In this document: piece by piece, positions 10,188-27,380 of the stretch
Layout of the letters: each line of letters begins with the position of its first letter
Numbering within the stretch: the stretch's first letter is position 1
Assembly: GCA_050290185.1 (NCBI GenBank)
Contig: JBNKHE010000005.1
Coordinates: forward strand, 128,001 to 192,000
Reading direction: 5' to 3'
DNA from: Pontiella sp.
Lineage (GTDB): Bacteria; Verrucomicrobiota; Kiritimatiellia; Kiritimatiellales; Pontiellaceae
Length of the DNA stretch: 64,000 bases
Position numbers and translations under genes: made by a program
The notes under the pieces: model-generated
Databases searched by the model: none
Seen by the model: only the letters and a program-made list of their open reading frames with translations
Told to the model about the DNA's origin: nothing

Positions 10188-11372
10188 ATGAAGTTTATTT
10201 ATTCATGGCGGTGGTTTGGTCCGAACGACCGGATTCGGCTGGAGGAGATCCGGCAGGCGGGTGCGACGGGCGTTGTTTCGGCGCTGCATCAGATTCCGGT
10301 GGGCGAGGTATGGTCCAAGGACGCCATTCTTGAGCGGAAACAAATGATCGAAGCCGCCGGATTGGAATGGGTGGTGGTTGAAAGCCTGCCGGTCAGTGAA
10401 GATATCAAGAAATGCAGCGGCGACTACCAACGGCATATCGAGAACTACAAGGTGTCGATCCGGAATCTGGCCGAATGCGGTCTCACGACCATCTGCTACA
10501 ATTTCATGCCCATCCTGGATTGGTCGCGCACCAACCTGAAGCTCGACTTTAAAGACGGCTCCTATACTTCGGAATTCCAACTGCATGTCTTTGCCGCTTT
10601 CGATCTATTCATGCTTAAACGAAGTGGGGCGGAGAAGGATTATCCACTCGAAGTGCTCGAGGAGGCACAGACGTTTTTTGAGCAACTCGATGCCGGAGGA
10701 AAAACAAAACTTCAGGAAACCATTCTCTATGGATTGCCGGGCTCCATGCAGACCTACACACCGGAAGAATTCCAGCAACTACTGGATTCCTATGCCGGTA
10801 TTGATCGCACGAAACTTAAAAGCCACTTGAGCTTGTTCTTAAACGAGGTGGTACCCGTAGCTGAGGCGTACAGCATAAAAATGGCGGTCCATCCCGACGA
10901 TCCGCCATGGAACCTGCTGGGGCTTCCGCGCATTGTCAGTAACGTTGACGATTTGATGGAGATCGTCGAAATGGTGGATTCGCCTTCAAACGGTGTGACC
11001 TTGTGCACCGGTTCGCTGGGGGGCGGACACTTCAACGATCTGCCCCGCATTGTCGAAGCCGTTGCACCGTCGATCCATTTCGTACATCTGCGTAACGTGG
11101 TCCGTGATGCGGGATTGAACTTCCAGGAAGAAGTCTTCTTCGAGGGCGATATTGATATGATCGCCGTGGTGAAGGCGTTGCTGAACGAAGGCAAGCGCCG
11201 GGGTGAAGCCGAAGGCCACGAATGGATCGTGCCTATTCGCCCTGATCACGGCCACCAGATACTGGATGACGTGGGTAGAGAAAACTATCCAGGCTACAGT
11301 CTATTCGGTCGAATGAAAAATCTGGCCGAGATTAAGGGGCTTACGCTGGGCCTGATGAGTTCAATCGATTAG
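10188..11372 (+). CDS. uxuA: Mannonate dehydratase
   Basis: WRWFGPND, CYNFMPILDWSRT, HPDDPP and RPDHGH motifs. Confidence 0.95.
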   Translation: MKFIYSWRWFGPNDRIRLEEIRQAGATGVVSALHQIPVGEVWSKDAILERKQMIEAAGLEWVVVESLPVSEDIKKCSGDYQRHIENYKVSIRNLAECGLTTICYNFMPILDWSRTNLKLDFKDGSYTSEFQLHVFAAFDLFMLKRSGAEKDYPLEVLEEAQTFFEQLDAGGKTKLQETILYGLPGSMQTYTPEEFQQLLDSYAGIDRTKLKSHLSLFLNEVVPVAEAYSIKMAVHPDDPPWNLLGLPRIVSNVDDLMEIVEMVDSPSNGVTLCTGSLGGGHFNDLPRIVEAVAPSIHFVHLRNVVRDAGLNFQEEVFFEGDIDMIAVVKALLNEGKRRGEAEGHEWIVPIRPDHGHQILDDVGRENYPGYSLFGRMKNLAEIKGLTLGLMSSID

Positions 11373-11485: not shown

Positions 11486-11562
11486 GCCCCGGTAGCTCAG
11501 CTGGACAGAGCGACAGATTCCTAATCTGTAGGTCGGAGGTTCGAACCCTCTCCGGGGCACCA
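11486..11562 (+). tRNA. tRNA-Arg (anticodon CCT)
   Basis: Acceptor stem GCCCCGG/CCGGGGC plus ACCA; D arm TAGCTCAGCTGGACAGAGC; anticodon arm ACAGA-TTCCTAA-TCTGT; T loop GGTTCGAA. Confidence 0.97.
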
Positions 11563-11575
11563 CTTTTCTTTTCCC

Positions 11576-11605
11576 ATCCCCAATGACTTTCGTTGGGGAT
11601 TTTTT
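11576..11605 (+). terminator. Intrinsic terminator after the tRNA
   Basis: ATCCCCAATGA-CTT-TCGTTGGGGAT followed by a T run. Confidence 0.75.
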
Positions 11606-11703: not shown

Positions 11704-11730
11704 AGAAAGCAATCAGAAAGCAATAAGAAA
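11704..11730. promoter_or_regulatory. Candidate operator for the DeoR-family regulator (11-bp-period direct repeats)
   Basis: AGAAAGCAAT-C-AGAAAGCAAT-A-AGAAA just upstream of the regulator gene. Confidence 0.5.
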
Positions 11731-11751
11731 CCCACAGGGCTAGTATAGACC

Positions 11752-12507
11752 ATGACTGTAAATGTTTCAGAACGCAGGGGAATGATACTCGAAGTGCTGG
11801 CGGAGGATGGAAATGTCAGTGTTTCCGAGCTTGCCAAGCGCCTTGGGGTCACGGTGGTTACGGCCCGTGCCGATCTGGCGTCGCTGGAAGAAGAAGGTTA
11901 TCTGGTTCGCACGCATGGCGGCGCGATGCCGGCTTATCATCCCAAGATTCTCGAGCGCATCCGCAAGGATAAGGATCTTAAATCCGCGATTGCCAAGGCC
12001 GCTGCCCATGAAATCCAGAGCGGCGATACGGTGATCATCAGTGCGGGAACCACCACCGCACTCATTGCCAAATACCTGCTGGGCAAGCGCGATATCCACA
12101 TCGTAACCAATAACACCCTGCTGCTTACCTACGCCCGCACCAATCCGCAGTTGCGCGTTACGCTGGTCGGTGGCGAATTCCGCGCGGCGGAAGAGGGCAA
12201 CATTGGACCCATGGCTTTGGCGGCGTTGGATCAGTTTCATGTGTCCAAGGCCTTCATCGGAATCGACGGGGCTTCCGTAAAGCAGGGCTTTACCGCCCAC
12301 TTTGTCGAAACCGCCGACCTCGTTCGCAAGATGGCCGAGCAGGCGGACGAGGTCATCGTTATTTCCGATTCATGCAAGTTCGGCAAGCCGGGCTTTGCCC
12401 GCATTCTGCCATTCGATGGCGTTGATTCGCTTGTTACCGACAAGGAACTCACGACCGAATTTGAAACCGAATTAACCAATGCCGATGTACGTATCATCAA
12501 GTCGTAA
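11752..12507 (+). CDS. DeoR/GlpR family transcriptional regulator
   Basis: HTH (VSELAKRLGVTVVTARADL), RTHGGA, DeoR C-terminal sensor (AGTTT, DSCKFG). Confidence 0.93.
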   Translation: MTVNVSERRGMILEVLAEDGNVSVSELAKRLGVTVVTARADLASLEEEGYLVRTHGGAMPAYHPKILERIRKDKDLKSAIAKAAAHEIQSGDTVIISAGTTTALIAKYLLGKRDIHIVTNNTLLLTYARTNPQLRVTLVGGEFRAAEEGNIGPMALAALDQFHVSKAFIGIDGASVKQGFTAHFVETADLVRKMAEQADEVIVISDSCKFGKPGFARILPFDGVDSLVTDKELTTEFETELTNADVRIIKS

Positions 12508-12518
12508 AGGAGAACGTT

Positions 12519-13838
12519 ATGGCGACAGAAGTATTAATGCCGAGACAGGGACAATCCGTTGAGTCCTGCATCATCATTGAATGGAAAGTGAACGAAGGCG
12601 ACGTCGTCTCTGAGGGACAGGCACTCTGCGAGGTCGAAACCGACAAGGCCACCTTCGAAGTCGAAGCGACTGCTTCCGGAACCGTGCTCGGCATCTTTTA
12701 CCCCGCCGAAGCCGACGTTGAAGTGTTGAAAGTCATCGCCGCCATCGGTGAACCGGATGAAGACATTTCGGGACTGCGGCCCGAAATGACAGAGGTCAGC
12801 GAGCAGAAGTCTGAGGTTAGTGAAGCAGTAGAAGCGCCGAAACCGGAACCGGCTCCGGCCGCTGTCACGCCTCAATCATCAATCGTCACGTCTTCCGGCG
12901 CATCACCCCGCGCCAAGAGTTTGGCGGACAAGAAAGGCGTCGACCTTTCCTCCATCGCGGGCTCCGGTCCGGGCGGACGCGTGATTGAACGCGATGTGGA
13001 TGCCGCTCCCGCCGTAACCCCGGCAGCCGCGGCCAAGGCCGCTGCCACAGGTCTTTCCATTCCTGCGGTCGGAACCGGAATGGGCGGCCGCGTTGTGCCC
13101 GCCGATTTGGTTGCCGTTGCTTCCTTGGAATTTCCCGGCGCCGTCACCGAAATCCCGATCAAGGGAGTTCGCAAGGTTGTTGCCAGCCGCATGCTCGATT
13201 CCCTTCAGAACACCGCACAGCTCACTCTTAATTCTTCAGCCGATGCCCGTTCGATCCTGGAATACCGGGAAAAGTGCAAGGCTGCTCCGGAGGAATATGG
13301 GGTGGGTGGTATCAGCATCAATGATGCAGTTCTCTACGCCACGGTCAAAACACTGGCCGAGTTCCCCGAACTCAATACGCACTGGAAGGGCGACAAGATG
13401 GTTCAGTTCGGTAACGTCCATCTTGGGTTTGCCGTCGACACGCCGCGCGGTCTGATGGTTCCCGTCATCCGCTTTGCCAACTTGATGAGTCTCAAACAGC
13501 TGTCCGTCGAAGCCAAGCGACTGGCCAAAGCCTGCCTCGATGGCACCATTGATCCGGACTCCCTGACGGGAGGAACTTTCACGGTCACCAATCTCGGGGC
13601 CATGGGCATCGAAAGCTTTACCCCGGTACTGAACAAGCCGGAGGTCGGTATTCTCGGTGTTTGCACCATCCAGCCGAAACCGGTGATGAAAGGTTCCGAG
13701 GTCGAGTTCGTGCCGCACATGGGCCTCTCGTTGACCTTCGATCACTGCGCTGTAGACGGCGCGCCCGCCGCACGTTTCCTGTCCGTATTGCGGCAGAAAC
13801 TCGCGAATTTCATGTTTGAACTCACATCGGAAAAATAA
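12519..13838 (+). CDS. Dihydrolipoamide acyltransferase (E2) of a 2-oxoacid-dehydrogenase-type complex
   Basis: Lipoyl domain ETDKAT; E3-binding GSGPGGRV; catalytic DHCAVDG. Confidence 0.93.
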   Translation: MATEVLMPRQGQSVESCIIIEWKVNEGDVVSEGQALCEVETDKATFEVEATASGTVLGIFYPAEADVEVLKVIAAIGEPDEDISGLRPEMTEVSEQKSEVSEAVEAPKPEPAPAAVTPQSSIVTSSGASPRAKSLADKKGVDLSSIAGSGPGGRVIERDVDAAPAVTPAAAAKAAATGLSIPAVGTGMGGRVVPADLVAVASLEFPGAVTEIPIKGVRKVVASRMLDSLQNTAQLTLNSSADARSILEYREKCKAAPEEYGVGGISINDAVLYATVKTLAEFPELNTHWKGDKMVQFGNVHLGFAVDTPRGLMVPVIRFANLMSLKQLSVEAKRLAKACLDGTIDPDSLTGGTFTVTNLGAMGIESFTPVLNKPEVGILGVCTIQPKPVMKGSEVEFVPHMGLSLTFDHCAVDGAPAARFLSVLRQKLANFMFELTSEK

Positions 13839-13841
13839 ACC

Positions 13842-15185
13842 ATGGTTTACGATATTATCATTATTGGAGCGGGGCCTGGCGGCTATGAAATGGCCGAGCG
13901 GGCAGGGCATAAGGGGCTGAAGGTGCTGCTGATTGAAAAGCAGTATCTCGGCGGCGTTTGTCTTAACTGGGGCTGCATCCCGACCAAGACCCTGCTCAAT
14001 TCCGCTAAACACTATGTTCATGCCAAGGAGGCGCCGGAGTTCGGGGTCAATGTTGGCGATGTCCAGTTCGACCTCGATAAGACGATGGCTTGGAAGCAGG
14101 ACGTGATCGAAACCTTGCGTGGCGGGGTTGCGGCCATGATGAAGAAAAACAAGGTCGAAGTCCTTTACGGCACGGCCAAGCTGATTGATTCACGCAAGAT
14201 CGAAGTCGACGGCACGGTATACGAAGGCAACAACGTCGTAATCGCCACCGGCGGCTCCCCGTTTATTCCGCCGATTCCCGGTGCCGACCAGCCGCACGTC
14301 ATGACCAGCAAGGAAATCCTGAGCGTTGATACGATGCCGAAGTCGTTGGCCGTGATCGGCGGCGGCGTGATCGGGATTGAATTCGCCAGCTTCTTTAGCA
14401 GTCTGGGCGTCAAGGTCGACGTGATTGAAATGCTGGATGAAATCATTCCGTTCATGGACAACGATCAGGCGGCCCAGTTCCGCAAGGCACTCAAGGGCAA
14501 GGTCGATTTCAATCTCGGATGTCGCGTTACAGCCATCGACGGCCATGACGTGAAGTTCACCACCAAATCGGGTGAGGAAAAGTCGATCAATGCCGACATT
14601 GTGCTGATGTCCGTTGGCCGCTCGCCGAACCTGTCCGGTATGGGCGTCGAAGAAGCCGGGCTTGATTTTGATCGTCGCGGCATCAAGACCGACGACCAGC
14701 AACGCACCAATCTACCGAACGTCTACGCCATCGGCGACGTTACCGGAAAATCACAGCTGGCTCACTCGGCCACCCGCATGGGCGAGGTGGCGCTCAATAC
14801 GATTCTCGGCAAGAAGGATCGTTTCCGCACCAACGCCATTCCGTGGGCGGTGTATTCGATGCCGGAAATCGCGGGCTGCGGCCTGACTGAAAAACAAGCG
14901 AAGGAGGCAGGGCATAATGTCAAGGCCGCCTCGTTGCCGCTCATCATGAGCGGACGCTTCCTTGCTGAAAACGGCAAGCGCGGTCCGGGTTCCGTCAAGG
15001 TGGTTGTCGATGCCGATACCCAGGCGCTGCTCGGCGTGCACATGTTCGGGGCCTATAGCTCGGAAATCATTTGGGGCGTCGCCGCCATGATCGAGTCCGG
15101 ACTCCGTGTCGAGGATGTCCAGGAAATCGTCTTCCCGCACCCGACGGTCGGGGAAGTTATTCGCAGTACGATGTTTCAGTTTTAA
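13842..15185 (+). CDS. lpdA: Dihydrolipoyl dehydrogenase (E3)
   Basis: [19 protein letters not shown] and HPTVGE motifs. Confidence 0.95.
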
Positions 15186-15228
15186 TCAATCAGTCTGATC
15201 AGACGAACCCGACCGATCTGTCTGATCA
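15184..15228. repeat. Degenerate 9-nt-period tandem repeat
   Basis: ATCAGTCTG ATCAGACGA ACCCGACCG ATCTGTCTG ATC between lpdA and the E1 gene. Confidence 0.55.
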
Positions 15229-15247
15229 TTTTTTAAAGGAGCCAACC

Positions 15248-17701
15248 ATGCCAAAAGATCAAGTTATATGCCCAGAGGAAACCCGCAAGGCGGGGGAAAT
15301 AACCTTTAAGCCGATTCCGATCAACCAGTACAAATCGGACTACAAGAAGGAAGAGAAGAAGTACGGCAAGGAGCGTCTCGTCAAGATGTACTACGACATG
15401 CTCATGATCCGCGAATTCGAAACCATGCTGAACCAGATCAAGGTTCAAGGATCCTATGAAGGCATGGAATACAATCATCCGGGGCCGGCCCACTTGTCGA
15501 TTGGCCAGGAGGCCGCGGCGGTTGGTCAATCGGTCAATCTGGACACCGATGACTACATCTTCGGCTCGCACCGTTCGCATGGTGAAATTCTGGCCAAGTG
15601 CCTGTCCGCGATCTACCAACTCGACGACGCCAAGCTGAACAGCATCATGGAAGGGTTCTTTGATGGCGCTACGTTGAAGGTCGTAAAGGATGGCTCACAC
15701 GAGAGTGCCAAGGATTTGGCGGAAGACTTCATCCTTTACGGCACTCTGGCGGAAATCTTCGCCCGCGACACCGGCATCAACCGTGGCCTTGGCGGCTCAA
15801 TGCATGCCTTCTTCATTCCGTTCGGATCCATGCCGAACAACGCACTGGTGGGCGGTTCCGCGGACATTTCCGTCGGTTCGGCTATGAACAAGCTGATCAA
15901 CCGCAAGCCCGGCATCGTGATTGCAAACATCGGCGACGCCTCCATGGGCTGCGGCCCGGTCTATGAAGGCATCTGGATGGCGGCGATGGACCAATATGTC
16001 GAGCTGTGGGACAAAGAATTCGGCCATCCCCCGGTACTGATCAATATCATGAACAACCAGTATGGCATGGGGGGGCAGACGGTTGGCGAAACCATGAGCT
16101 ACAAATACGCGGCGCGTATCGGCGCGGGCATCAACTCCCATCAGATGCATGCGGAACGTGTCGACGGATACAATCCGCTGGCGGTGGCCGATGCCACCGA
16201 ACGCAAGAAAAAAGTTCTTCTCGAAGGTAAGGGGCCGGCTCTACTCGACATCGTTACCTACCGTATTTCCGGACACTCTCCATCCGATGCTTCGTCCTAT
16301 CGTTCCAAGGAAGAGATGGAGCTTTGGGAAGCACAGGATTGCGTTCGCACCTTCGGCGAATACCTCATCGAAAACGGCGCTCTCTCCGAAACGGATGCCG
16401 AAGCCTTGAAGGCCAAGGTTGTTGCCAAGGTCAGCAAAGCCATGAAGCTGGCGATCGATGAATCGGTTTCCCCGTATTCTGATGTCGGTCTGATCGAAAA
16501 GGTCATGTACTCCAACGGCAAGGTTGAGAAATTCGATGACCGCGAGCCGGAACTGCTGCAGAAGCTCGAAGACAACGATCGCGTTAAGCAGCTGAAGCGC
16601 AAAAAACGGTATGCGTTTGACGAAACCGGCCAGCCCTACAAGCCCAACCAGCTTTACACCTTCCGCGACGGCATTTTCGAAGCCATGGCCCACCGCTTTA
16701 CCGTGGACCCCTCCATGATTGCCTACGGCGAGGAAAACCGCGACTGGGGCGGGGCATTCGCCTGCTACCGCGGTTTGACGGAATTGCTGCCGTACCATCG
16801 CCTGTTCAACTCGCCGATTTCGGAAGGCGCGATTGTTGGAACCGCCTGCGGTTATGCCCTGAGCGGCGGCCGAGTGTGCGCCGAGCTGATGTATTGCGAT
16901 TTCATGGGCCGCGCCGGCGATGAAATCTTCAACCAGATCGCCAAGTGGCAGTCGATGTCCGCCGGCATCCTGAAAATGCCGCTGGTGCTCCGCGTTTCCG
17001 TGGGCAACAAGTATGGCGCGCAGCATTCGCAGGACTGGACCGCAATGGTCAACCATATCCCGGGCCTGAAGGTTTACTATCCGGCGACGACCTACGATGC
17101 CAAGGGCATGCTCAACCTGGCGCTGGCCGGAACCGATCCGGTGATCTTCTTCGAATCGCAGAAGACCTACGGCGTGGGCGAGCTGTTCGAAAAGGGCGGG
17201 GTGCCGGAAGGCTACTATGAAACGGAAGAGGGAGAGCCAGCGGTTCGTGTTCAGGGCAAAGACCTGACGCTCGTAACGCTCGGTCCGGTGCTCTACAGCG
17301 GCATGAAGGTGGTTGATGAAATGAAGGAAAAGTACGGCATGGAAGTCGAACTTATCGACCTGCGTTTCGTCGCGCCGCTCAACTACGACAAGATCGTCGA
17401 ATCCGTCAAGAAGACCGGTCGCATCGTGCTGGTCTCCGATGCGGTAGAGCGTGGTTCCGCGCTGCACAATATTGCATCGAACATCACGAACCTGTGCTTC
17501 GACTATCTCGATGCTCCGCCGGTGGTGATCGGTGCCAAGAACTGGATCTCTCCGGCCGCTGAAATGGAGAAGGATTACTTCCCGCAGTCCGAGTGGATCA
17601 TCGACGCGATCCACGAGCGCATCGTTCCGCTTCCAGGTCATGTGGTGAAGCACAACTATACCACTGGCGAAATGTTGCGCATTGCGCGGAAGGGTGTGTA
17701 A
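15248..17701 (+). CDS. Fused E1 alpha/beta TPP-dependent dehydrogenase component (acetoin/2-oxoacid dehydrogenase-like)
   Basis: [17 protein letters not shown] motif GDA..NN, YRISGHS; beta half has SPISEG, HSQ and ELIDLR; AAGGAG RBS before ATG 15248. Confidence 0.9.
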
Positions 17702-17704
17702 AAC

Positions 17705-17755
17705 TGACAAGTGACGATTGAGTCGTGACTCACGTTTTACGGCTCACTCGTCACG
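17705..17755. repeat. Heptamer-period inverted repeat
   Basis: TGA at 17705/17712/17719/17726; TCA or TTA at 17730/17737/17744/17751. Confidence 0.7.
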
Positions 17756-17771
17756 AAACCAGAGGTTTTAT

Positions 17772-18992
17772 ATGGCACTAGAAGTAAACAACCACGTTCA
17801 CTCGACCTATTCGTTCAGCCCCTACACGCCGTCGGACATTCCGGAAAAGGCCAAACAGGCTGGACTTGGGACCGTTGGCATCATGGACCACGATTCGGTT
17901 TCTGGCTGCGAGGAGTTTCTTGAAGCCAGCAAAAAGATGGACATCGCGGCGACTATTGGTTTCGAGATGCGCGTCAATATGAACGGCACGTCGGTGGAAG
18001 GTCGCAAGACCAATAATCCCGACGAGCCTAACGTCAGTTACATCGCAATCCACGGTATTCCACGTAACCAGATTGCCAAGGTAAAGGACTTCCTGAAGCC
18101 GATCCACGAGGCGCGGATTGCGCGCGACCGGAAAGAAGTTGAAAAATTGAATGCGGTCCTGAACGAGCGTGGGGCCCCAACGCTTGATTTCGACGCCGAC
18201 GTTCTAGCCATCTCCAATGCGGCTGATGGAGGATCGGTCACCGAACGCCACATTCTCTATGCGCTGTCGCTTAAGCTGATCGAGGAGCATGGCAAGGGTG
18301 AGTGGCTGGTTGGATTTGTCGAAAATCAGATGAAGATTCCATTGGCCGGCAAGCTCAAGGAACTGTTGCTTGATACGGGCAATCCGCACTATGCCTACGA
18401 TTTGCTGGGGGCGTTTAAGTCGGAATTGGTTCCCGAGTTTTTCATTGTTTCGGACTACGACGAATGCATCTCCGTCCATGACGCCGTCAAATTTGGAAAC
18501 GAAATCGGCGCGATCCCGGCCTATGCCTACCTCGGCGATGTCGGCGAATCACCGACCGGAGACAAGAAGGCAGAAAAGTTCGAGGATGATTTCCTCGATG
18601 AGCTGGTGCCCGAGCTGAAGCAGCTCGGCTTCAAGGCGATCACCTACATGCCGCCGCGCAACACCCTTGAACAACTAATGCGGTTGCAAAAGCTTTGCCA
18701 GGAAAACGGCCTGATGGAAATCAGCGGTGTGGACATCAACAGTTCGCGGCAGTCGTTCAACTGCCCGATCCTGCTGGAGCCGGAATTCAAGCATCTGGCC
18801 GATGCGGCTTGGGCGCTGATTGCGCATGAAAAGCTCGCTGACGCCGATCCGAAACTGGCACTGTTTAGTGATAAAAACCCGCTGGCCAGCAAGCCGCTGG
18901 AAGAGCGTGTTGCCCGTTATGCAGAGATTGGAAAACGGATTGATCATTCCCGTCCTGAAGAGGCGATCAATCTGAAGGGAGATTTGAAATGA
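17772..18992 (+). CDS. PHP-domain metallohydrolase (putative sugar-phosphate phosphatase)
   Basis: NNHVHSTYS and GIMDHDS PHP metal-binding motifs; GAGG RBS. Confidence 0.8.
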   Translation: MALEVNNHVHSTYSFSPYTPSDIPEKAKQAGLGTVGIMDHDSVSGCEEFLEASKKMDIAATIGFEMRVNMNGTSVEGRKTNNPDEPNVSYIAIHGIPRNQIAKVKDFLKPIHEARIARDRKEVEKLNAVLNERGAPTLDFDADVLAISNAADGGSVTERHILYALSLKLIEEHGKGEWLVGFVENQMKIPLAGKLKELLLDTGNPHYAYDLLGAFKSELVPEFFIVSDYDECISVHDAVKFGNEIGAIPAYAYLGDVGESPTGDKKAEKFEDDFLDELVPELKQLGFKAITYMPPRNTLEQLMRLQKLCQENGLMEISGVDINSSRQSFNCPILLEPEFKHLADAAWALIAHEKLADADPKLALFSDKNPLASKPLEERVARYAEIGKRIDHSRPEEAINLKGDLK

Positions 18993-20068
18993 AAAAGAAA
19001 GCACTCGAAATCGCGCCAATGCTACGCGGACTGAGCTTTGATGGAGAAAAGGGTGACGTTGTCGTATTCAAGGATCGGATCGACTATGCCGAACTCACGT
19101 GCAAGGCGGATGAGTTGGCCGAAAAATACGAGAAGGGTATGCACTCGGTCTATGTTGAAGGTGTCGGCGGCTTCCTGCTTGGCGAGGACTACGACGATGC
19201 CATGAACGGAACCTCTGCCGCACCGATCTCGACCGGTCGTGCCGCGGTGGTACACAACAAGGTTTGCGTGGTGACCGGCGGGGCGCAGGGATTCGGCGAA
19301 GGCATCGTGCGCGAACTCATCAAAAACGGAGCGACCGTGTTCATTGCGGACATGAACGTGGGTGGAGCCAAAAAGCTGGCACTGGAGCTCAATGAAGAGG
19401 CCGGGCGTACCGTGGCCTTTGGCATTTCCGTCAACGTGACCGATGAAAAGTCGGTCGAGAAGATGGTGGTGGAAATCGTTAAGACCGTGGGCGGAATCGA
19501 CCTGTTTGTCAGCAACGCCGGAGTGCTCAAGGCCGGCAGCGTAAAGGAAATGACGCTTAAGGATTTCGAGTTCGTGACCGACGTCAACTATATCGGCTTC
19601 TTCCTATGCACGAAACATGTTGCGCCGGTGATGGAGCGTATGAACAAGCCGCACGGAAACTACTACACCGACATCATCAGCATCAGCTCCAAGTCGGCGT
19701 TGGAAGGTTCCAATAAGAACGGTGCCTATGCCGGCTCAAAGTTCGGTTCTGTTGGTCTGGTGCAGAGTTTTGCCAAGGAACTGGTGGTGGATAACACCAA
19801 GGTCAACACCGTCTGCCCTGGAAACTTTTTCGACGGGCCGCTGTGGTCCGACCCCGAGAAGGGGCTGTTTACGCAGTACCTCAATACCGGGAAGGTGCCG
19901 GGAGCCAAAACCGTCGAGGATGTCCGCCATTACTACGAATCGCAAATCCCGATGGGCCGCGGATGCGATGGAGAAGACGTCACGAAGGCCATTCTCTACA
20001 CGGTCGAACAGAAATATGAAACCGGCCAAGCCATCCCCGTCACTGGCGGCCAGGTGATGCTGAACTAA
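18989..20068 (+). CDS. SDR oxidoreductase, sorbitol-6-phosphate dehydrogenase (SrlD)-like, with an N-terminal extension of about 85 aa
   Basis: TGGAQGFG, YAGSK, and the SrlD-typical SSKS..GS.KN and CPGNFFDGPLW...LFTQY. Confidence 0.82.
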   Translation: MKKKALEIAPMLRGLSFDGEKGDVVVFKDRIDYAELTCKADELAEKYEKGMHSVYVEGVGGFLLGEDYDDAMNGTSAAPISTGRAAVVHNKVCVVTGGAQGFGEGIVRELIKNGATVFIADMNVGGAKKLALELNEEAGRTVAFGISVNVTDEKSVEKMVVEIVKTVGGIDLFVSNAGVLKAGSVKEMTLKDFEFVTDVNYIGFFLCTKHVAPVMERMNKPHGNYYTDIISISSKSALEGSNKNGAYAGSKFGSVGLVQSFAKELVVDNTKVNTVCPGNFFDGPLWSDPEKGLFTQYLNTGKVPGAKTVEDVRHYYESQIPMGRGCDGEDVTKAILYTVEQKYETGQAIPVTGGQVMLN

Positions 20069-20113
20069 TGACCGACAACGAATAACCAATAACAATTTAC
20101 GATTAACTATTAC
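20069..20113. repeat. Degenerate heptamer tandem repeat
   Basis: TGACCGA CAACGAA TAACCAA TAACAAT TTACGAT TAACTAT. Confidence 0.55.
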
Positions 20114-20126
20114 CCGGAGGGTAACC

Positions 20127-21398
20127 ATGAAAACCAAGGCAGTCAGACTTTACGGCGAGAAAGATTTGCGGTTGGAGGAGTTCGAACTTCCGGCCATCGG
20201 TGAAAACGAAATCCTTGCCAAGATCGTATCCGATTCCATCTGCATGTCGTCCTACAAGGCGGCGTCGCAGGGCATCAAGCACAAGCGCATTCCTGACAAT
20301 GTGGCGGACGAGCCGATCATTATCGGGCACGAGTTCTGCGGCGAGATCGTGGAGGTCGGCAGCAAATGGGCGGATCAGTTCACGGCAGGCGACAAGTTTT
20401 CGATCCAGCCCGCGATCAACTATAAAAATGGCCCCGTAGGCATTCTTTCGGCGCCGGGCTATTCGTACCAATACATCGGCGGCGATTCGCAATATGTCAT
20501 CATTCCCGCCGAGGTCATGGCGCAGGATTGCCTGTTGCCGTTCAACGGCGAAGCCTACTATCACGGTTCGCTGGCCGAACCGATGTCCTGCATCGTGGGC
20601 GGCTTCCACGCCAACTACCACACCAAGCCCGGCAGCTATGTCCACGAAATGGGCATCGTTGAGGGCGGTGCGATGGCGTTGCTCGCCGGCGTTGGCCCAA
20701 TGGGGCTGGGCGCGATCGACTATGCGATCCACTGCGACCGCAAGCCGGGGCTGCTGGTGGTCACCGATATCGACAATGCCCGACTGGAACGTGCCGCATC
20801 GATCTACACGGTTGAAGAAGCCAGGGCCAACGGCGTTGAGCTGATCTATGTCAATACGGCGGAAGAAAGCCATGGCGTGGACTACCTGAAGTCGCTTACT
20901 CCTAAGGGTGAGGGCTTCAACGACGTCTTCGTGTATGCTCCGGTTCGCCCCGTGATCGAGCAGGCTGATAAGCTGCTGGCGTTCGATGGCTGTCTGAATT
21001 TCTTTGCCGGCCCGACCGATCCCGCTTTTTCGGCCGAGTTCAACTTCTACAACGTTCATTATGCTGCCACGCACGTGGTCGGTACAAGCGGCGGCAACAC
21101 CGATGATATGATCGAGTCGCTGAAAATGATGGAAGAGGGGCGCCTGAACCCGTCCACCATGATCACGCACGTTGGCGGTCTCGATGCGGTAATCGATACC
21201 ACCCTGAATCTGCCGAATATTCCGGGTGGCAAGAAGCTGGTCTATAACAATGTCAGCATGCCGCTGGTGGCGCTGAATGATCTGAAGGGCTTGGCCGGCG
21301 AATTCTATCAGGGCCTGGCCGCGATCGTTGAAAAACACAATGGCCTGTGGAGCCCGGAAGCCGAGCAATACCTATTGGCCAACGCGCCGGCGATTTAA
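20127..21398 (+). CDS. Zn-dependent MDR, L-sorbose-1-phosphate reductase (SorE)-like
   Basis: SDSICMSSYKA, GHEF, GVGPMGLGAIDY, NFFAGPTD and VGTSGG match the SorE-type subfamily. Confidence 0.85.
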   Translation: MKTKAVRLYGEKDLRLEEFELPAIGENEILAKIVSDSICMSSYKAASQGIKHKRIPDNVADEPIIIGHEFCGEIVEVGSKWADQFTAGDKFSIQPAINYKNGPVGILSAPGYSYQYIGGDSQYVIIPAEVMAQDCLLPFNGEAYYHGSLAEPMSCIVGGFHANYHTKPGSYVHEMGIVEGGAMALLAGVGPMGLGAIDYAIHCDRKPGLLVVTDIDNARLERAASIYTVEEARANGVELIYVNTAEESHGVDYLKSLTPKGEGFNDVFVYAPVRPVIEQADKLLAFDGCLNFFAGPTDPAFSAEFNFYNVHYAATHVVGTSGGNTDDMIESLKMMEEGRLNPSTMITHVGGLDAVIDTTLNLPNIPGGKKLVYNNVSMPLVALNDLKGLAGEFYQGLAAIVEKHNGLWSPEAEQYLLANAPAI

Positions 21399-21510
21399 AA
21401 GGGGATTGTAGGGCTGGAACGGTCACAGACCTTCAAGCCGCGGCGGGAAGGCCTTCAGCCATTCCCGCCCAACAATGTTAGCGGAAAAATCATTGAGAGG
21501 GGTTGGGACA

Positions 21511-22965
21511 ATGGCGAAGCATTATCTGGCAGTGGATCTAGGGGCATCAAGCGGACGCACCATTGTAGGAACCTTAGATGAAGGAAAGCTGACGCTCAAG
21601 GAGATGAACCGGTTCTGGAACGGTCCGACGGAAATCCGTGGCACGCTCCATTGGGATTTTGTCCATCTGTTTCGCTGTATCCAGGAAGGCATTGCTCTCG
21701 CCAAAAAGGAGTTCGGGGACGGTCTTGTTTCGATGGGAATCGATACCTGGGGCGTCGATTTTGGTTTGTTCGATGCCGACGGGAAGCTGCTTCGCAATCC
21801 GGTCAACTATCGTGACAGCCGGACCAACGGCATGTTCGAAAAGGTGTTCGAACGCGTGCCTAAGGAAGAAGTATTTGCCCAGACCGGCATCCAGTTTATG
21901 GAGATCAATACCCTCTATCAGCTGATGGCACTTTCCTTGTCGGATTCAGCCCAATACCGAATGGCCGACAAGCTGCTCTTCTCACCGGATCTGCTGGGGT
22001 ATTGGCTGACCGGCAACATGGTAGCTGAACGAAGCATCGCCAGCACCTCCCAGTTCTACAATCCGGTGACGAAAGACTGGGCATACGACCTGCTGGAAAA
22101 GTTGGGCATTCGGACCGATCTGTTTGCCGAACTAGTCGATCCCGGAACCGTGATCGGCGAAACCGATGGATTGCCGGTGGTAGCGGTCGGCGGACACGAC
22201 ACCGCCAGCGCCTTTGCGGCCGTGCCGGTTTCCGAGGGGGAACATTGCGCCTTTCTTAGTTCCGGCACCTGGTCTCTGCTTGGAACGGAGCTGACCGAGC
22301 CTGTCATTAACGAAGGATCACTAGCGGCCAACTTTACCAACGAGGTCGGCGTATGCGGTACCATCCGTTTCCTGAAGAACCTTTCCGGCCTGTGGATTAT
22401 CCAGGAGCTGCGCCGGGTTTGGAACGAACAGGACTGCGACTATTCGTGGGCAGCCATGGAACACATGGCGCTGGAGGCCCAACCATTTGAGTTCTTCATT
22501 GATCCGAGCGATGAGGGATTCCTTGCCCCGGGCGATATGCCATCACGGATCCAGGACTACTGCGAACACACGGGGCAGGGGCGTCCTGAAACCCATGCAC
22601 AGATCCTGCGCGCCGCCTATGAAGGGCTGGCCTTGCTTTATGCGGATGTCTACGAATCGCTCGAAACCCTGTCAGGCCGCAAACTGGACATATTGCGCAT
22701 CGTAGGCGGCGGATGCAAGGATACCTTGCTCAATCAGCTGGCTGCCAACGCCACCGGTCGCAAGGTCGTAACCGGCCCGACCGAGGCCACGGCAACGGGC
22801 AATCTGATTGTCCAGATGTTGGCGATGGGGGACATCCAATCGCTCGATGACGGGCGTGAAATCATCCGTAACTCCTTCGCCGGGGAAACGAAGGAGTTCA
22901 TCCCTCAGAATACCGATGCATGGCAAGCCGCACGGGTGAACTGGCGGGCATTGGTCGGAAAGTAG
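21511..22965 (+). CDS. FGGY sugar kinase, rhamnulokinase (RhaB)-like
   Basis: AVDLGASSGR, GIDTWGVDF, HDTASA, SSGTWSLLG and VGGG motifs. Confidence 0.88.
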   Translation: MAKHYLAVDLGASSGRTIVGTLDEGKLTLKEMNRFWNGPTEIRGTLHWDFVHLFRCIQEGIALAKKEFGDGLVSMGIDTWGVDFGLFDADGKLLRNPVNYRDSRTNGMFEKVFERVPKEEVFAQTGIQFMEINTLYQLMALSLSDSAQYRMADKLLFSPDLLGYWLTGNMVAERSIASTSQFYNPVTKDWAYDLLEKLGIRTDLFAELVDPGTVIGETDGLPVVAVGGHDTASAFAAVPVSEGEHCAFLSSGTWSLLGTELTEPVINEGSLAANFTNEVGVCGTIRFLKNLSGLWIIQELRRVWNEQDCDYSWAAMEHMALEAQPFEFFIDPSDEGFLAPGDMPSRIQDYCEHTGQGRPETHAQILRAAYEGLALLYADVYESLETLSGRKLDILRIVGGGCKDTLLNQLAANATGRKVVTGPTEATATGNLIVQMLAMGDIQSLDDGREIIRNSFAGETKEFIPQNTDAWQAARVNWRALVGK

Positions 22966-23124: not shown

Positions 23125-24465
23125 TTAGAAAGTGCCCATCGGTTTTTTGTCTGCATTAATTGCTGTTCCGAATACAGGCCCGTCCAGCGTCATCTCCCTA
23201 GGGTCAAGTTCCATCTTCGATACAAGTTTCTCGTCCACCGGAGTGGTTTTGAATATGGGGAGAACCGGGCGAGGGCCCGCATCGGATTCAACCATTTTAT
23301 AGCTTACTCCCTGCTTTTCGATGAGCAGTCGGCTAGCGAAGAATCCGCCCGGAAATTCTCCAATTAGGATGTCAACATCCACGGGTTGACCTTTTCTCAG
23401 TCTTACCCAGTCACCAATAACCAAACGCGATGCCAAAGACATGTAGCTGCCTTTAGGGTCGAAATTCTCGCCATCGATTTTAACCTGGCCCAAGGTATAA
23501 CCCCAGCTAACATCGCTGTCATAGCCACCTAGGTCTTCAATCTGCGAGAAGATGTCCATGAAGTCAGCACCCTTTACGCTCCCATAATTTTTCTGATTAA
23601 TAGGAAACCTATAGCTGTCGTCATTGTCGCTTTTCCAGAATGACACTTGTCCGATTAGCTCTGGCCAGCTGGCATCCAGTACCACCCGTTTTCCAACGCG
23701 GACGATCAGAATATCATCTCCGATTCCGCAGAAACGATAGCTTCCGGTTTCCGGGGCGGCAATCTGTCCCTTGTAATGGCAAATCCAATATTTACCCTGA
23801 ACCTTGTCATCAACACCGAAGGCCTCGGGAGCAGCTTCAGCGGCCATAGGCGGCATTATAAACGAGGTTGAGTATTTCAGTTTGGGTGCCTTGAAGAAGT
23901 CCTTGAGACGCCTTTCGCTAAAACCGGAACCGACGAATCCCTTGATGACCTTGCACGCAAGAACTTGAGTATCAGGACTGTATGAATTTTCCTCGGCCAA
24001 TTCCCCGATCTTAGTCAGTTCACCATCTTGGTCTTGTTTTAGGTCGTAAAAGGTACCGATGAATTCGTTACCTGTGCCTCTGCTGCTCCCAAAGAGGTCC
24101 AAATCAAATCCGAATCCCAGTCCTCCAAGTCCATCACCTTGTCCATATCCCGTGCCTCCGGGTACGCCGATGATTTCCGGCATCTGGATGTTTACGTCCT
24201 TGTATTTTGGCTTCGTTACAATGGTGTGGCGCAACTTTGGGGCCTGGGCTTTTTTCTCCTTAACGGGCACCTGCAGTTTCTTAAGCTTCATCTTGGGACG
24301 TTTGACTGCCGTGGCCTCAAAGATCTGCTCGGGTTTGACATATACCTGTACAGCGACAAAGGTGAGCGCAACGACAATAAACACAATATGTATAATGACG
24401 CTCACCACCAAAGCACTCGATTTTTTGTGGTTCAGGAAAAAAAACTTTTTCTTTTGTTCGCTCAT
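23125..24465 (-). CDS. Membrane-anchored hypothetical protein with PA14-like domain (paralog 1)
   Basis: N-terminal TM with SVIIH; K/P-rich and Gly-rich linker; HYKGQIAAPETGSYRFCGIGDD resembles PA14. Confidence 0.7.
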   Translation of the reverse strand: MSEQKKKFFFLNHKKSSALVVSVIIHIVFIVVALTFVAVQVYVKPEQIFEATAVKRPKMKLKKLQVPVKEKKAQAPKLRHTIVTKPKYKDVNIQMPEIIGVPGGTGYGQGDGLGGLGFGFDLDLFGSSRGTGNEFIGTFYDLKQDQDGELTKIGELAEENSYSPDTQVLACKVIKGFVGSGFSERRLKDFFKAPKLKYSTSFIMPPMAAEAAPEAFGVDDKVQGKYWICHYKGQIAAPETGSYRFCGIGDDILIVRVGKRVVLDASWPELIGQVSFWKSDNDDSYRFPINQKNYGSVKGADFMDIFSQIEDLGGYDSDVSWGYTLGQVKIDGENFDPKGSYMSLASRLVIGDWVRLRKGQPVDVDILIGEFPGGFFASRLLIEKQGVSYKMVESDAGPRPVLPIFKTTPVDEKLVSKMELDPREMTLDGPVFGTAINADKKPMGTF

Positions 24466-24654: not shown

Positions 24655-25977
24655 TTAGAATGCGCCCAAGGCCTTTTTCTTGCCATTAATACCTACGCCG
24701 AAGACAGGACCGTCCAGCGTTGCATGGTTTGAATCAATTTTCATTTGTCCGGCCAGTTTTTCATCAATCTCGGTTGTTTTGAATACCGGCAGGACCGGTC
24801 GGGGACCGGCATCGGATGGCACCATCTTATAGTGTTTGCCTTCCTGCTCGATCATGAGCCGGCACATGAAACTTCCACCTGGGATTTCGCCGATCAGAAT
24901 ATCAATATCGACCGCTTGCCCTTTCCTCAGGGTGAACCAGTCTCCATACACCATGCGGCAGGCCAGTTTCCACGAGTCGACGGCAAAGGGCTCACCATTT
25001 ACACGGATATCCTTGATCGCCTCATAAAACTGTCTGGAGCCATTCCATCCACCGAGATCCTCAATCTGTGAATAGATGTCCTTGAAATTGATGCCATCGA
25101 TCAAAGCACGATCCAAAGGAAACAAGCGGTTCTGGTCTGATTTGCTCAGCCAATCGGACATTAGCTTGATATGTTCCGCCCAGCAGGCATCGAGAACCAT
25201 TCGACGTCCCACTCGTACGAACAGCACATCGTCGCCCAATCCGCAAAAACGGTAGCGGCCACTTTCCGGCGCAGCAATTTGGCCTTTGTAGTGACATACC
25301 CAGTAACTGGGTTTCACCTGATCTTCTACGCCAAAGGCTTCCGGGGCCGCGTTGGCATCAATTGGCGGCATCATCAGTGCCGTAGCATACTTTAGTTTGG
25401 GGCCTTTGAAGTAACCGTTGAGTCGCCCTTCATTAAAGCCGGAGCCGACGAAGCCCTTGATAACCTTATACAAGGCCTCTTTCGCATGGTTCTTGTTCTT
25501 ATCCTGCACCGCCTTCCCGATATCCGTCAGGTCTCCATCCGGCTCCTGCTTAAGGTCATAGAAGGTTCCGATCAGCTCGTTTCCCGAGCCCCGGCTACCA
25601 CCGAACAGATCCAGATCAAAATTGAAACCCAACCCTCCAAGTCCATCACCTTTTCCGTATCCCGTGCCTCCGGGTACGCCGATGATTTCCGGCATCTGGA
25701 TGTTTACGTCCTTGTATTTGGGTTTCGTTACAATGGTGTGGCGCAACTTGGGGGCCTGGACTTTTTTCTCCTTAACGGGCACCTGAAGTTTCTTAAGCTT
25801 CATCTTGGGACGTTTGACATCCGTGGCCTCAAAGGTCTGCTCGGGTTTGACATACACCTGTACCGCAACAAAGGTGAGCGCTACGACAATGAACACAATA
25901 TGTATAACGACGCTCACCACCAAAGCGCTCGACTTTTTGTGGTTCAGGAAAAAAAATCTCTTCTTTCGTTCGCTCAT
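24655..25977 (-). CDS. Membrane-anchored hypothetical protein with PA14-like domain (paralog 2)
   Basis: Same architecture as 23125-24465; the 5' ~340 nt are nearly identical. Confidence 0.7.
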   Translation of the reverse strand: MSERKKRFFFLNHKKSSALVVSVVIHIVFIVVALTFVAVQVYVKPEQTFEATDVKRPKMKLKKLQVPVKEKKVQAPKLRHTIVTKPKYKDVNIQMPEIIGVPGGTGYGKGDGLGGLGFNFDLDLFGGSRGSGNELIGTFYDLKQEPDGDLTDIGKAVQDKNKNHAKEALYKVIKGFVGSGFNEGRLNGYFKGPKLKYATALMMPPIDANAAPEAFGVEDQVKPSYWVCHYKGQIAAPESGRYRFCGLGDDVLFVRVGRRMVLDACWAEHIKLMSDWLSKSDQNRLFPLDRALIDGINFKDIYSQIEDLGGWNGSRQFYEAIKDIRVNGEPFAVDSWKLACRMVYGDWFTLRKGQAVDIDILIGEIPGGSFMCRLMIEQEGKHYKMVPSDAGPRPVLPVFKTTEIDEKLAGQMKIDSNHATLDGPVFGVGINGKKKALGAF

Positions 25978-26093
25978 GCTCAATCAACCTTTAATTTTCT
26001 TTTCATGTAGTCGACATCAACTACACCTTCTGAATCCATATAGTAAACCGCACATATATAGCGGAATAATAGCGAAGTAGAAGTCCAAACTAC

Positions 26094-27306: not shown

Positions 27307-27380
27307 TTTCAGGTTATTCGTCATAACATCTCCCTCTGATTGTGAATTCGCAAAAAGCTTTAAATGAAAGGGATAAACGC

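Follow-up and report, generated by a model that had tools for sequence, protein, structure and literature searches.

Fucose and rhamnose rank among the main sugars in algal fucoidan, pectin and mucus. In the classical FucIKA and RhaABD pathways, as in the RhaEW system and the Planctomycetes-Verrucomicrobia-Chlamydiae (PVC) microcompartment, an isomerase and a kinase are followed by an aldolase cut between C3 and C4 that yields dihydroxyacetone phosphate (DHAP) and lactaldehyde. Here we describe an operon of eight plus-strand open reading frames (ORFs) at positions 11752-22965 of a 64,000-nt stretch of Pontiella sp. (assembly GCA_050290185.1, contig JBNKHE010000005.1, 128,001-192,000; hereafter the window, to whose positions all gene coordinates refer). 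It has the isomerase and kinase steps in common with these pathways, and a RhaE-like domain often lies near related modules, but neither a transporter nor an intact aldolase is among its eight genes. Comparative genomics makes a link of this gene set to the deoxy sugars L-fucose and L-rhamnose very probable, and it is on balance probable that the deoxy sugar is flipped end for end and cleaved directly as a methyl ketol by the E1/E2/E3 complex of the operon, with no aldolase involved.

Acetoin dehydrogenase (AcoA/AcoB/AcoC/AcoL) shares with the operon the E1/E2/E3 architecture, an HRxHG motif in E1 alpha and the proposed cleavage of a methyl ketol. Here, however, alpha and beta are fused, alpha carries an insertion of about 45 amino acids (aa), identity to AcoA/AcoB is 26-37% with placement in a separate clade, the E2 catalytic domain is of the pyruvate dehydrogenase (PDH) type, and a sugar-phosphate context replaces the acoX, acoR and butanediol genes. 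The L-sorbose pathway (SorE and SorD), like SrlD, follows the same end-for-end logic from ketose-1-phosphate through hexitol-6-phosphate to ketose-6-phosphate, whereas no sorbose phosphotransferase system (PTS) is present here and the 1-phosphate would be supplied by a kinase. The operon would work like an acetoin dehydrogenase joined to the sorbose pathway, and is a member of neither system. A precedent for ketose phosphates as donors to a lipoyl group is given by QncN/QncL, which together with SclQ2-4 belong to nonribosomal peptide synthetase (NRPS) clusters and, by their description, combine thiamine diphosphate (ThDP)-dependent E1-like subunits with a lipoyl acyltransferase to draw a C2 unit from a ketose phosphate; unlike the operon, they are biosynthetic and load a glycolyl unit onto an acyl carrier protein (ACP) (PMC6335953).

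A comparable cluster has been published from Caldicellulosiruptor (Athe_0695-0706 / Csac_0865-0876), in which, by the listed names, SrlD-like, SorE-like, E2, E3, E1, DeoR and RhaA genes are shared (PMC8579813); it differs in its predicted FucA and RhaD1 and in a host that makes 1,2-propanediol (PMC8579813, PMC4187192). There, SorE and SrlD bear the tag 'Sorbose?' and lactaldehyde is the proposed substrate of the complex (PMC8579813); the cluster is expressed more strongly on rhamnose and correlates with growth on it, most gene functions being unclear (PMC4187192). The initial annotation of the window had called the pathway uncharacterised and named no characterised pathway with this gene set, which holds; the Caldicellulosiruptor cluster, though noted in print, is not characterised either. 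No description of a flip followed by ketol cleavage was found in the open literature, subscription papers lying outside this coverage.

The operon would form the lower half of an aldolase-free 6-deoxyhexose route, with L-fucose as the sugar in this genome. FucP, FucU and FucI, encoded elsewhere, would lead to L-fuculose, which the kinase would convert to L-fuculose-1-phosphate. The PHP-fold protein would then invert one carbon, most simply C3, to give 6-deoxy-L-sorbose-1-phosphate, and the SorE-like enzyme would reduce C2 of the latter to 1-deoxy-D-glucitol-6-phosphate, the identical molecule numbered from the other end. Oxidation of the methyl-adjacent carbon by the SrlD-like enzyme would generate 1-deoxy-D-fructose-6-phosphate, an acetoin-like methyl ketol; acting in succession, SorE and SrlD would carry the carbonyl from the phosphorylated end of the chain to the opposite one and turn a 6-deoxy sugar into a methyl ketol. 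E1/E2/E3 would finally cut between C2 and C3 to produce acetyl-CoA, D-erythrose-4-phosphate and NADH, E1 being the proposed 1-deoxy-ketose-6-phosphate:lipoamide oxidoreductase (acetylating), and erythrose-4-phosphate would enter the pentose-phosphate network. In rhamnose users, RhaA would be needed as well as a protein of the class II aldolase fold that may be a C4 epimerase, and the inversion could alternatively occur later, on the ketose-6-phosphate or on threose-4-phosphate.

Stereochemical bookkeeping indicates that without inversion fucose and rhamnose both lead to acetyl and D-threose-4-phosphate, and with C3 inversion both to acetyl and D-erythrose-4-phosphate. Inverted at C3, fucose passes through the deoxy analogues of L-sorbose-1-phosphate, D-glucitol-6-phosphate and D-fructose-6-phosphate, one inversion being what SorE and SrlD need to keep their known configurations on this sugar, while rhamnose requires an extra inversion at C4. 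The window genome (3.58 Mb, 95.5% complete) contains xylA and xylB but has no match to the transaldolase/fructose-6-phosphate aldolase (FSA) family, and erythrose-4-phosphate would thus have to be recycled without transaldolase; in such a genome the same must apply to xylose-derived pentoses. That the operon represents a third phosphorylated L-fucose/L-rhamnose route, common in anaerobes of several phyla and independent of lactaldehyde and microcompartments, is a tentative proposal; it would call for the first sugar-phosphate epimerase of the PHP fold and, for rhamnose, a stand-alone RhaE-fold 4-epimerase.

The E1/E2/E3 sequences retain the ThDP motif, the catalytic His and Glu, the lipoyl Lys and the redox disulfide. 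The PDH-like architecture, along with the automatic JGI name 2-oxoisovalerate dehydrogenase, could suggest that sugar induces a second dehydrogenase for pyruvate or branched-chain 2-oxoacids, but this is very improbable. Indeed, E1 stays far below the PDH family cut-offs (193 versus 394 and 217 versus 321 bits), E2 scores under every PDH, 2-oxoglutarate dehydrogenase (OGDH) and AcoC equivalog cut-off, and identity of E1 to BkdA/BkdB is 26% (alpha) and 35% (beta), with no grouping in trees. In quick alpha and beta trees (41 rows each, with AcoA/B, PdhA/B and BkdA/B references taken from annotated plasmids and long branches meeting among the outgroups), E1 forms its own clade outside all three reference groups, with Shimodaira-Hasegawa-like approximate likelihood ratio test (SH-aLRT) values of 98 (alpha) and 97 (beta). 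The alpha tree places this clade next to AcoA and not inside the AcoA/AcoB clade, and the alpha motif HRSHG is nearer to HRGHG of AcoA than to RDHG of PDH. The complex is not the housekeeping PDH, because a separate AceE-like PDH with its own E2 (labels from reading of the ORFs) is encoded elsewhere in the genome, and the near-perfect co-occurrence of E1 with the PHP-fold protein also speaks against a second 2-oxoacid dehydrogenase. The initial annotation had contrasted a dedicated complex with a housekeeping pyruvate or branched-chain enzyme, and it is the dedicated complex that the phylogeny favours.

Of the genomes sampled, 62 out of 111 from Kiritimatiellia and 18 out of 151 from Spirochaetota encode this E1. 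The Kiritimatiellia matches form one group of 28 with at least 56% identity and another of 34 with 38-42%, both headed by DeoR and each sometimes linked to PHP, SDR (short-chain dehydrogenase/reductase), kinase or FucI genes; the two are joined in both quick trees and have in common the alpha insertion and a Lys-Tyr-Gly ahead of the beta QHSQ. More distant sugar-linked E1 sequences occur in Arthrobacter (L178, with an FGGY kinase and a class II fructose-bisphosphate aldolase) and Priestia (L179, with a glucitol PTS), which are weakly supported neighbours of the E1 clade in the alpha tree. Six loci (L005, L012, L017, L019, L024, L148) encode an E3 of 571-579 aa with an extra N-terminal lipoyl domain, which the E3 of the window does not have.

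The link with deoxy sugars is based on the distribution of isomerases. All 62 Kiritimatiellia carriers of E1 have at least one of FucI-like (54 genomes, called at E<=1e-20, 30 of the 54 being above the family cut-off) and RhaA (56 genomes), the 8 carriers without FucI all having RhaA, whereas E1 occurs in none of the 35 genomes with neither. An isomerase without E1 is present in 14 genomes, 8 of which are from one microcompartment-bearing family. The odds ratio of E1 with FucI is 26, against 3.3 for the xylA control, and the association persists in xylA-negative genomes (26 with both, 4 and 3 with one only, 34 with neither). The window genome encodes fucI, fucU and fucP (fucose permease) outside the operon, shows no match to RhaA, RhaI or bacterial microcompartment (BMC) proteins and has one RhaB-like kinase, and L-fucose is thus the likely substrate here. 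The substrate, left open in the initial annotation, is narrowed in this way to L-fucose/L-rhamnose, with the fucose permease as well as a FucA-like aldolase located elsewhere in the genome. RhaI, with 0 of 111 Kiritimatiellia above cut-off, is uninformative.

A RhaE-like domain without RhaW, as would suit the extra C4 inversion of rhamnose, is encoded by 35 of the 111 genomes, standing alone in 31 and joined to an SrlD-like SDR in 4; all 35 have E1 and 34 have RhaA, while it is absent from the 11 genomes with RhaA but no E1, and its intact form is missing in the window genome. A general role of this domain is argued against by 22 genomes with E1 and RhaA but no RhaE-like domain, some of which have other class II proteins. 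Microcompartments were also considered: E1 and BMC shells overlap in only 4 of 111 genomes, an anticorrelation that could be taken as proof of alternative fucose routes. It was rejected as general evidence because the ten BMC loci sampled (67 of 160 candidate ORFs scanned) comprise 8 with RpiB-DeoC, 1 with deoB and nucleoside phosphorylase genes and only 1 with a PVC-microcompartment layout; family f23 alone, a single lineage, fits such an alternative (E1 0/8, BMC 7/8, RhaA 8/8). In many Kiritimatiellia (L153, L155, L156, L158-L162) the microcompartment comes with an aldehyde dehydrogenase and an RpiB-DeoC fusion, to which deoB and nucleoside phosphorylases are often added, and xylA is found in only 4 of 32 BMC genomes outside family f23.

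FucI-family enzymes also act on D-arabinose and L-galactose, and the module might serve another sugar that travels with the isomerases, such as these or an ordinary ketose-6-phosphate cleaved to glycolyl-CoA, or the complex might decarboxylate a 2-keto sugar acid. QncN/L-type enzymes do form glycolyl units from ketose phosphates, XylB-adjacent members of the E1 clade may use xylulose-5-phosphate, and uxuA (mannonate dehydratase) lies upstream in the window. These alternatives are nevertheless unlikely. Non-deoxy L-galactose would end at fructose-6-phosphate, with no E1 required, and the presence of RhaA in every E1 carrier without FucI argues for deoxy sugars; uxuA is found in 0 of 80 E1-relative loci, and no recurring sugar-acid dehydratases or lactonases are seen in the clusters examined. 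The initial annotation had offered oxidative cleavage of a ketose phosphate or decarboxylation of a 2-keto sugar acid; the former fits, while gene context gives no support to the latter.

The PHP-fold protein is the one universal, unassigned partner of E1 and a putative sugar-phosphate epimerase in the pathway. By a profile of 32 relatives, it is present in 61 of 111 Kiritimatiellia genomes (60 with E1, 2 with E1 only, 1 with PHP only, 48 with neither), often on separate contigs, and in Spirochaetota 17 genomes have E1 and PHP, 1 has E1 only and none PHP only; PHP thus accompanies E1 in 60 of 62 and 17 of 18 carriers. Where it stands apart from E1, its neighbours are often a SorE-like or other medium-chain dehydrogenase/reductase (MDR) gene, an SDR and a kinase. 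The structural model (predicted local distance difference test, pLDDT, 94) has 3e0f and 2yb1 as best Foldseek matches, i.e. a TrpH/YciV-like fold, and a search of the ESM Atlas returned unnamed PHP clusters only. Compared with E. coli RNase AM, H8 and H10 (HxH), E65 and D321 are retained, whereas three or four further ligands are changed, the SDG Asp being replaced by F15, a His by Y90, the AHP His by Y253 and the DxH His by N323, and invariant R118, E158-R159-H160, R296-N297 and N323 are gained. The full three-metal ligand set of the trinuclear PHP phosphoesterases (TrpH/YciV/RNase AM) is not present; going by the ligand roles in PHP proteins, one of three metal sites is presumably left. The hydrolase label of the initial annotation is doubtful because several canonical metal ligands are lost, and a single-metal phosphosugar-binding enzyme suits the residues better than a trinuclear phosphoesterase. 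A specific assignment as L-fuculose-1-phosphate 3-epimerase is less likely than not. In one locus (L063:12478-16964) a PHP-like protein is fused behind a mannitol-1-phosphate-dehydrogenase-like N-terminal domain, and the next gene is a RhaE-SDR fusion that is intact; D-series deoxy sugars are hinted at by MtlD-like genes that stand alone (L048, L065, L073) and by GutQ-like genes (L063, L065, L073).

The two dehydrogenases agree with the flip. SrlD (PRK12384) is the best of 203 models for the SDR, at 225 bits and under the equivalog cut-off of 307, and the best PDB match is SrlD 5o3z, identity to E. coli SrlD being 36%. In 13 modules (12 hand-picked and that of the window), the SDR slot is filled by 9 SrlD-like and 4 SorD-like (46-56%) proteins; SrlD and SorD are just 26% identical and both are D-glucitol-6-phosphate dehydrogenase lineages, and the presence of two separate lineages in one slot points to a glucitol-6-phosphate-like substrate. 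The zinc-dependent MDR shares, over its full length, 53% identity with E. coli YggP and 50% with SorE from a Klebsiella sor operon, two assignments that sequence cannot separate. The kinase reaches 472 bits against the rhamnulokinase model (cut-off 528), with 42% identity to E. coli RhaB and 27% to FucK, and in relatives paralogs of 73-75% identity adjoin rhaA; it is the likely L-fuculokinase because it is the sole RhaB-like gene found in the genome.

As proposed in print, a class II aldolase could split the ketose-1-phosphate into DHAP and L-lactaldehyde, with E1/E2/E3 oxidising lactaldehyde (e.g. to lactyl-CoA) and SorE/SrlD serving an unrelated 'sorbose' role. This accords with the likely lactaldehyde step of the acetoin-dehydrogenase-like Athe_0702-4 (PMC8579813), with 1,2-propanediol production by C. 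saccharolyticus (PMC4187192), with RhaEW as a proven aldolase/dehydrogenase (PMC3870299) and with the RhaE-like or FucA-like genes that accompany many modules. We consider it rather unlikely, since it does not account for SorE, SrlD/SorD or PHP in spite of the close co-occurrence of PHP with E1, and since no match to class II aldolases was found in three genomes (G073, G007, G113) that encode E1 together with FucI or a FucI-like protein. In addition, the SDR scores higher with SrlD than with the RhaEW model TIGR02632 (128 bits, cut-off 568). It has no intact N-terminal aldolase domain: relatives retain a complete RhaE-like class II aldolase domain, of which the first ~85 aa of this SDR match the eroded tail. 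No lactaldehyde reductase scores above cut-off in the window genome. RhaEW does not release DHAP without NAD+ (PMC3870299), as might be expected of a fold able to retain its aldehyde.

Physiological data come from cultured relatives. Pontiella desulfatans, whose E1 and PHP are 90% and 79% identical to those of the window, ferments fucose with 80% electron recovery; the products are H2, acetate and ethanol, besides minor succinate and lactate, and no 1,2-propanediol is reported (PMC6388578). In this species fucK and aldA were not identified and its fucose pathway was scored incomplete (PMC7356697). Neither P. sulfatireligans nor P. desulfatans grows on L-sorbose or D-sorbitol (PMC7356697).

Several observations weigh against direct ketol cleavage after a flip. 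The strongest, at least as regards the main route in that organism, is the formation of propanediol, acetate, H2 and CO2 from rhamnose at 1:1:1:1 by C. saccharolyticus (PMC4187192), whose cluster also includes predicted aldolases (PMC8579813 supplement). P. sulfatireligans, which carries the operon, also forms 1,2-propanediol from fucose (PMC6388578); it has an FSA-type gene next to the operon and a FucA-like gene 70% identical to the mtnA-linked one of the window genome, either of which could be the propanediol source. The FucA-like aldolase beside mtnA in the window genome itself could cleave fuculose-1-phosphate. To our knowledge, no PHP-fold epimerase has been described. Among the E1 carriers, G003 and G007 qualify by weak FucI-like matches alone (E ~1e-36), most genomes are incomplete metagenome-assembled genomes, and the co-occurrence p-values overstate the link because kin are not independent. 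The candidate DeoR operator was not found in the fucP/fucI regions examined, the region upstream of fucI being unassembled in this genome. Lastly, E1 of the same clade occurs in Chloroflexi, Poribacteria and rhizobia without PHP, SorE or SrlD in the fetched flanks, next to XylB, RPE-like or PfkB genes.

The FSA-type gene raises a variant in which the flip leads to 1-deoxy-D-fructose-6-phosphate as above, but FSA then releases acetol and glyceraldehyde-3-phosphate, and acetol is cleaved by E1/E2/E3 to acetyl-CoA and formaldehyde or converted to 1,2-propanediol. In 4 of the 80 loci, including that of P. sulfatireligans, the gene (41% identity to E. coli FsaA, with Gln59 and Tyr131 kept) is transcribed divergently to the operon, hydroxyacetone is an accepted FSA donor (PMC7767278), and the variant could explain propanediol in Caldicellulosiruptor, which is without known lactaldehyde reductases (PMC8579813). 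It is quite improbable as a general route, given that the window genome, G073 and G007 have no match to the transaldolase/FSA family and that formaldehyde would be released, and it is best seen as a redox-balancing side branch.

The conservation of the gene set was assessed by a scan that gave at least 586 stretches encoding E1 relatives, of which 80 were kept as loci, many contigs being short. The partners in these loci, too frequent for a chance grouping, are E2 (64), E3 (48), PHP (41), SDR (35), DeoR (34), SorE-like (31) and kinase (15), with transketolase (8), FucI (4, two in Kiritimatiellia and two in spirochaetes), FucU (4) and the FSA-type gene (4) adjacent to the cluster. Among the matches listed, the nearest are Pontiella and other Kiritimatiellales (E1 identity 80-94%); the full set is found in Kiritimatiellia and Spirochaetota and variants in Chloroflexota, Planctomycetota and Sumerlaeota. 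The sugar module of the initial annotation is thereby supported as conserved across phyla, dehydrogenase and sugar genes occurring together in other genomes as well. The Chloroflexi copies of E1 adjoin XylB or RPE-like genes, and on rhizobial plasmids E1 (50-51% identity) is accompanied by a sugar kinase, a lipoyl domain that stands free and an alpha/beta hydrolase. These varied contexts indicate that the clade is not deoxyhexose-specific everywhere; judging from them, it probably cleaves several ketose phosphates, the deoxyhexose reading applying to the PHP-SorE-SrlD form. In the rhizobial loci (L163, L164, L165) the free lipoyl domain and the hydrolase replace a normal E2 alongside XylB or PfkB kinases, and a pentulose phosphate may there be the source of acetate or glycolate set free by the system. 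An inorganic pyrophosphatase lies inside the operon in 5 of 80 loci (L001, L005, L010, L013, L026); that of the window genome is elsewhere (G000:C2:354955), with a weak operator-matrix match across its start codon.

If true, the pathway would be a new way of breaking down fucose and rhamnose, would explain the fucose fermentation of P. desulfatans without reported 1,2-propanediol and without identified fucK or aldA, would provide the 2-oxoacid-dehydrogenase family with a catabolic ketose-phosphate:lipoamide oxidoreductase and the PHP fold with a new chemistry, and would offer a direct, CO2-free step from deoxy sugar to acetyl-CoA for engineering. A 2026 survey scored fucose users by two MetaCyc pathways only (PMC13668718), and organisms using this module could thus be missed. 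Cultured hosts exist, and each step of the pathway can be assayed.

The coordinates of the operon and its boundaries are collected in Table 1. Successive genes are separated by 11, 3, 62, 70, -4, 58 and 112 bp, and likely starts were chosen from ribosome-binding sites at 15248 (E1), 17772 (PHP) and 21511 (kinase). Gaps, coordinates and family searches bear out the eight co-oriented genes and families first read from the window, as well as the lack of a transporter and of an intact aldolase, with the eroded RhaE-like tail in the SDR as a refinement.

Table 1. Features of the operon and its upstream region in the window
Feature	Length	Position	Strand	Remarks
tRNA-Arg(CCT) and terminator-like hairpin		11486..11600	+	upstream boundary, outside the pathway
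Candidate DeoR operator		11704..11731	+	AGAAAG-type direct repeats, 11-bp period; weaker repeats reach ~11682
DeoR/GlpR-family repressor	251 aa	11752..12507	+	Pfam DeoRC, HTH_DeoR
E2 dihydrolipoyl acyltransferase	439 aa	12519..13838	+	lipoyl, E3-binding and catalytic domains; ETDKA at 40, DHCAVDG at 408
E3 dihydrolipoyl dehydrogenase	447 aa	13842..15185	+	TIGR01350 493 bits (cut-off 409); CxxxxC and H-x4-E motifs
Fused E1 alpha-beta ThDP enzyme	817 aa	15248..17701	+	GDAS..NN, HRSHG, GHSPSD, ISEGAI and GAQHSQ motifs
PHP-fold protein (TrpH/YciV-like), reduced metal site	406 aa	17772..18992	+	proposed sugar-phosphate epimerase
SrlD-like hexitol-6-phosphate 2-dehydrogenase (SDR)	359 aa	18989..20068	+	~85-aa RhaE-like aldolase remnant at N-terminus
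SorE/YggP-family ketose-1-phosphate reductase (Zn-MDR)	423 aa	20127..21398	+	Zn-MDR residues C39, GHE
RhaB-like FGGY ketohexose kinase	484 aa	21511..22965	+	best model rhamnulokinase TIGR02627

Upstream of DeoR, three direct repeats with an 11-bp period are common to 30 of 31 regions of other genomes. A matrix trained on these 31 regions (30 fitting well), with the window site outside the training set, gives the candidate operator as the top match of the genome at 29.7 bits, the next best being 23.2, and the site is inferred to be bound by the DeoR protein. A shared fuc regulon was rejected, as neither the fucP operon of the genome nor the fuc genes of 6 locus stretches showed a convincing matrix site, and a scan for sigma-70 promoters and terminators in the window gave the same counts as shuffled sequence. 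The uxuA gene (10188-11372), of which a second copy is on contig C9, is separated from the operon by the tRNA gene and hairpin and was rejected as a pathway member on the basis of the 80 loci. The FucA-like class II aldolase of the genome (L081, G000:C2:299428-301118) is divergent from an mtnA-like gene; it probably serves methylthio- or deoxy-ribulose-1-phosphate, with fuculose-1-phosphate as a possible side route. Downstream of the operon, tandem paralogues on the minus strand (23125-24465 and 24655-25983) have no Pfam match and an N-terminal hydrophobic stretch each, and are followed by an ATP-cone ribonucleotide reductase, class II-like by appearance (27342-29639), and by a 726-aa ORF with two radical-SAM-like halves (29800-31980), which we take to resemble fused enzymes of the menaquinone futalosine pathway.

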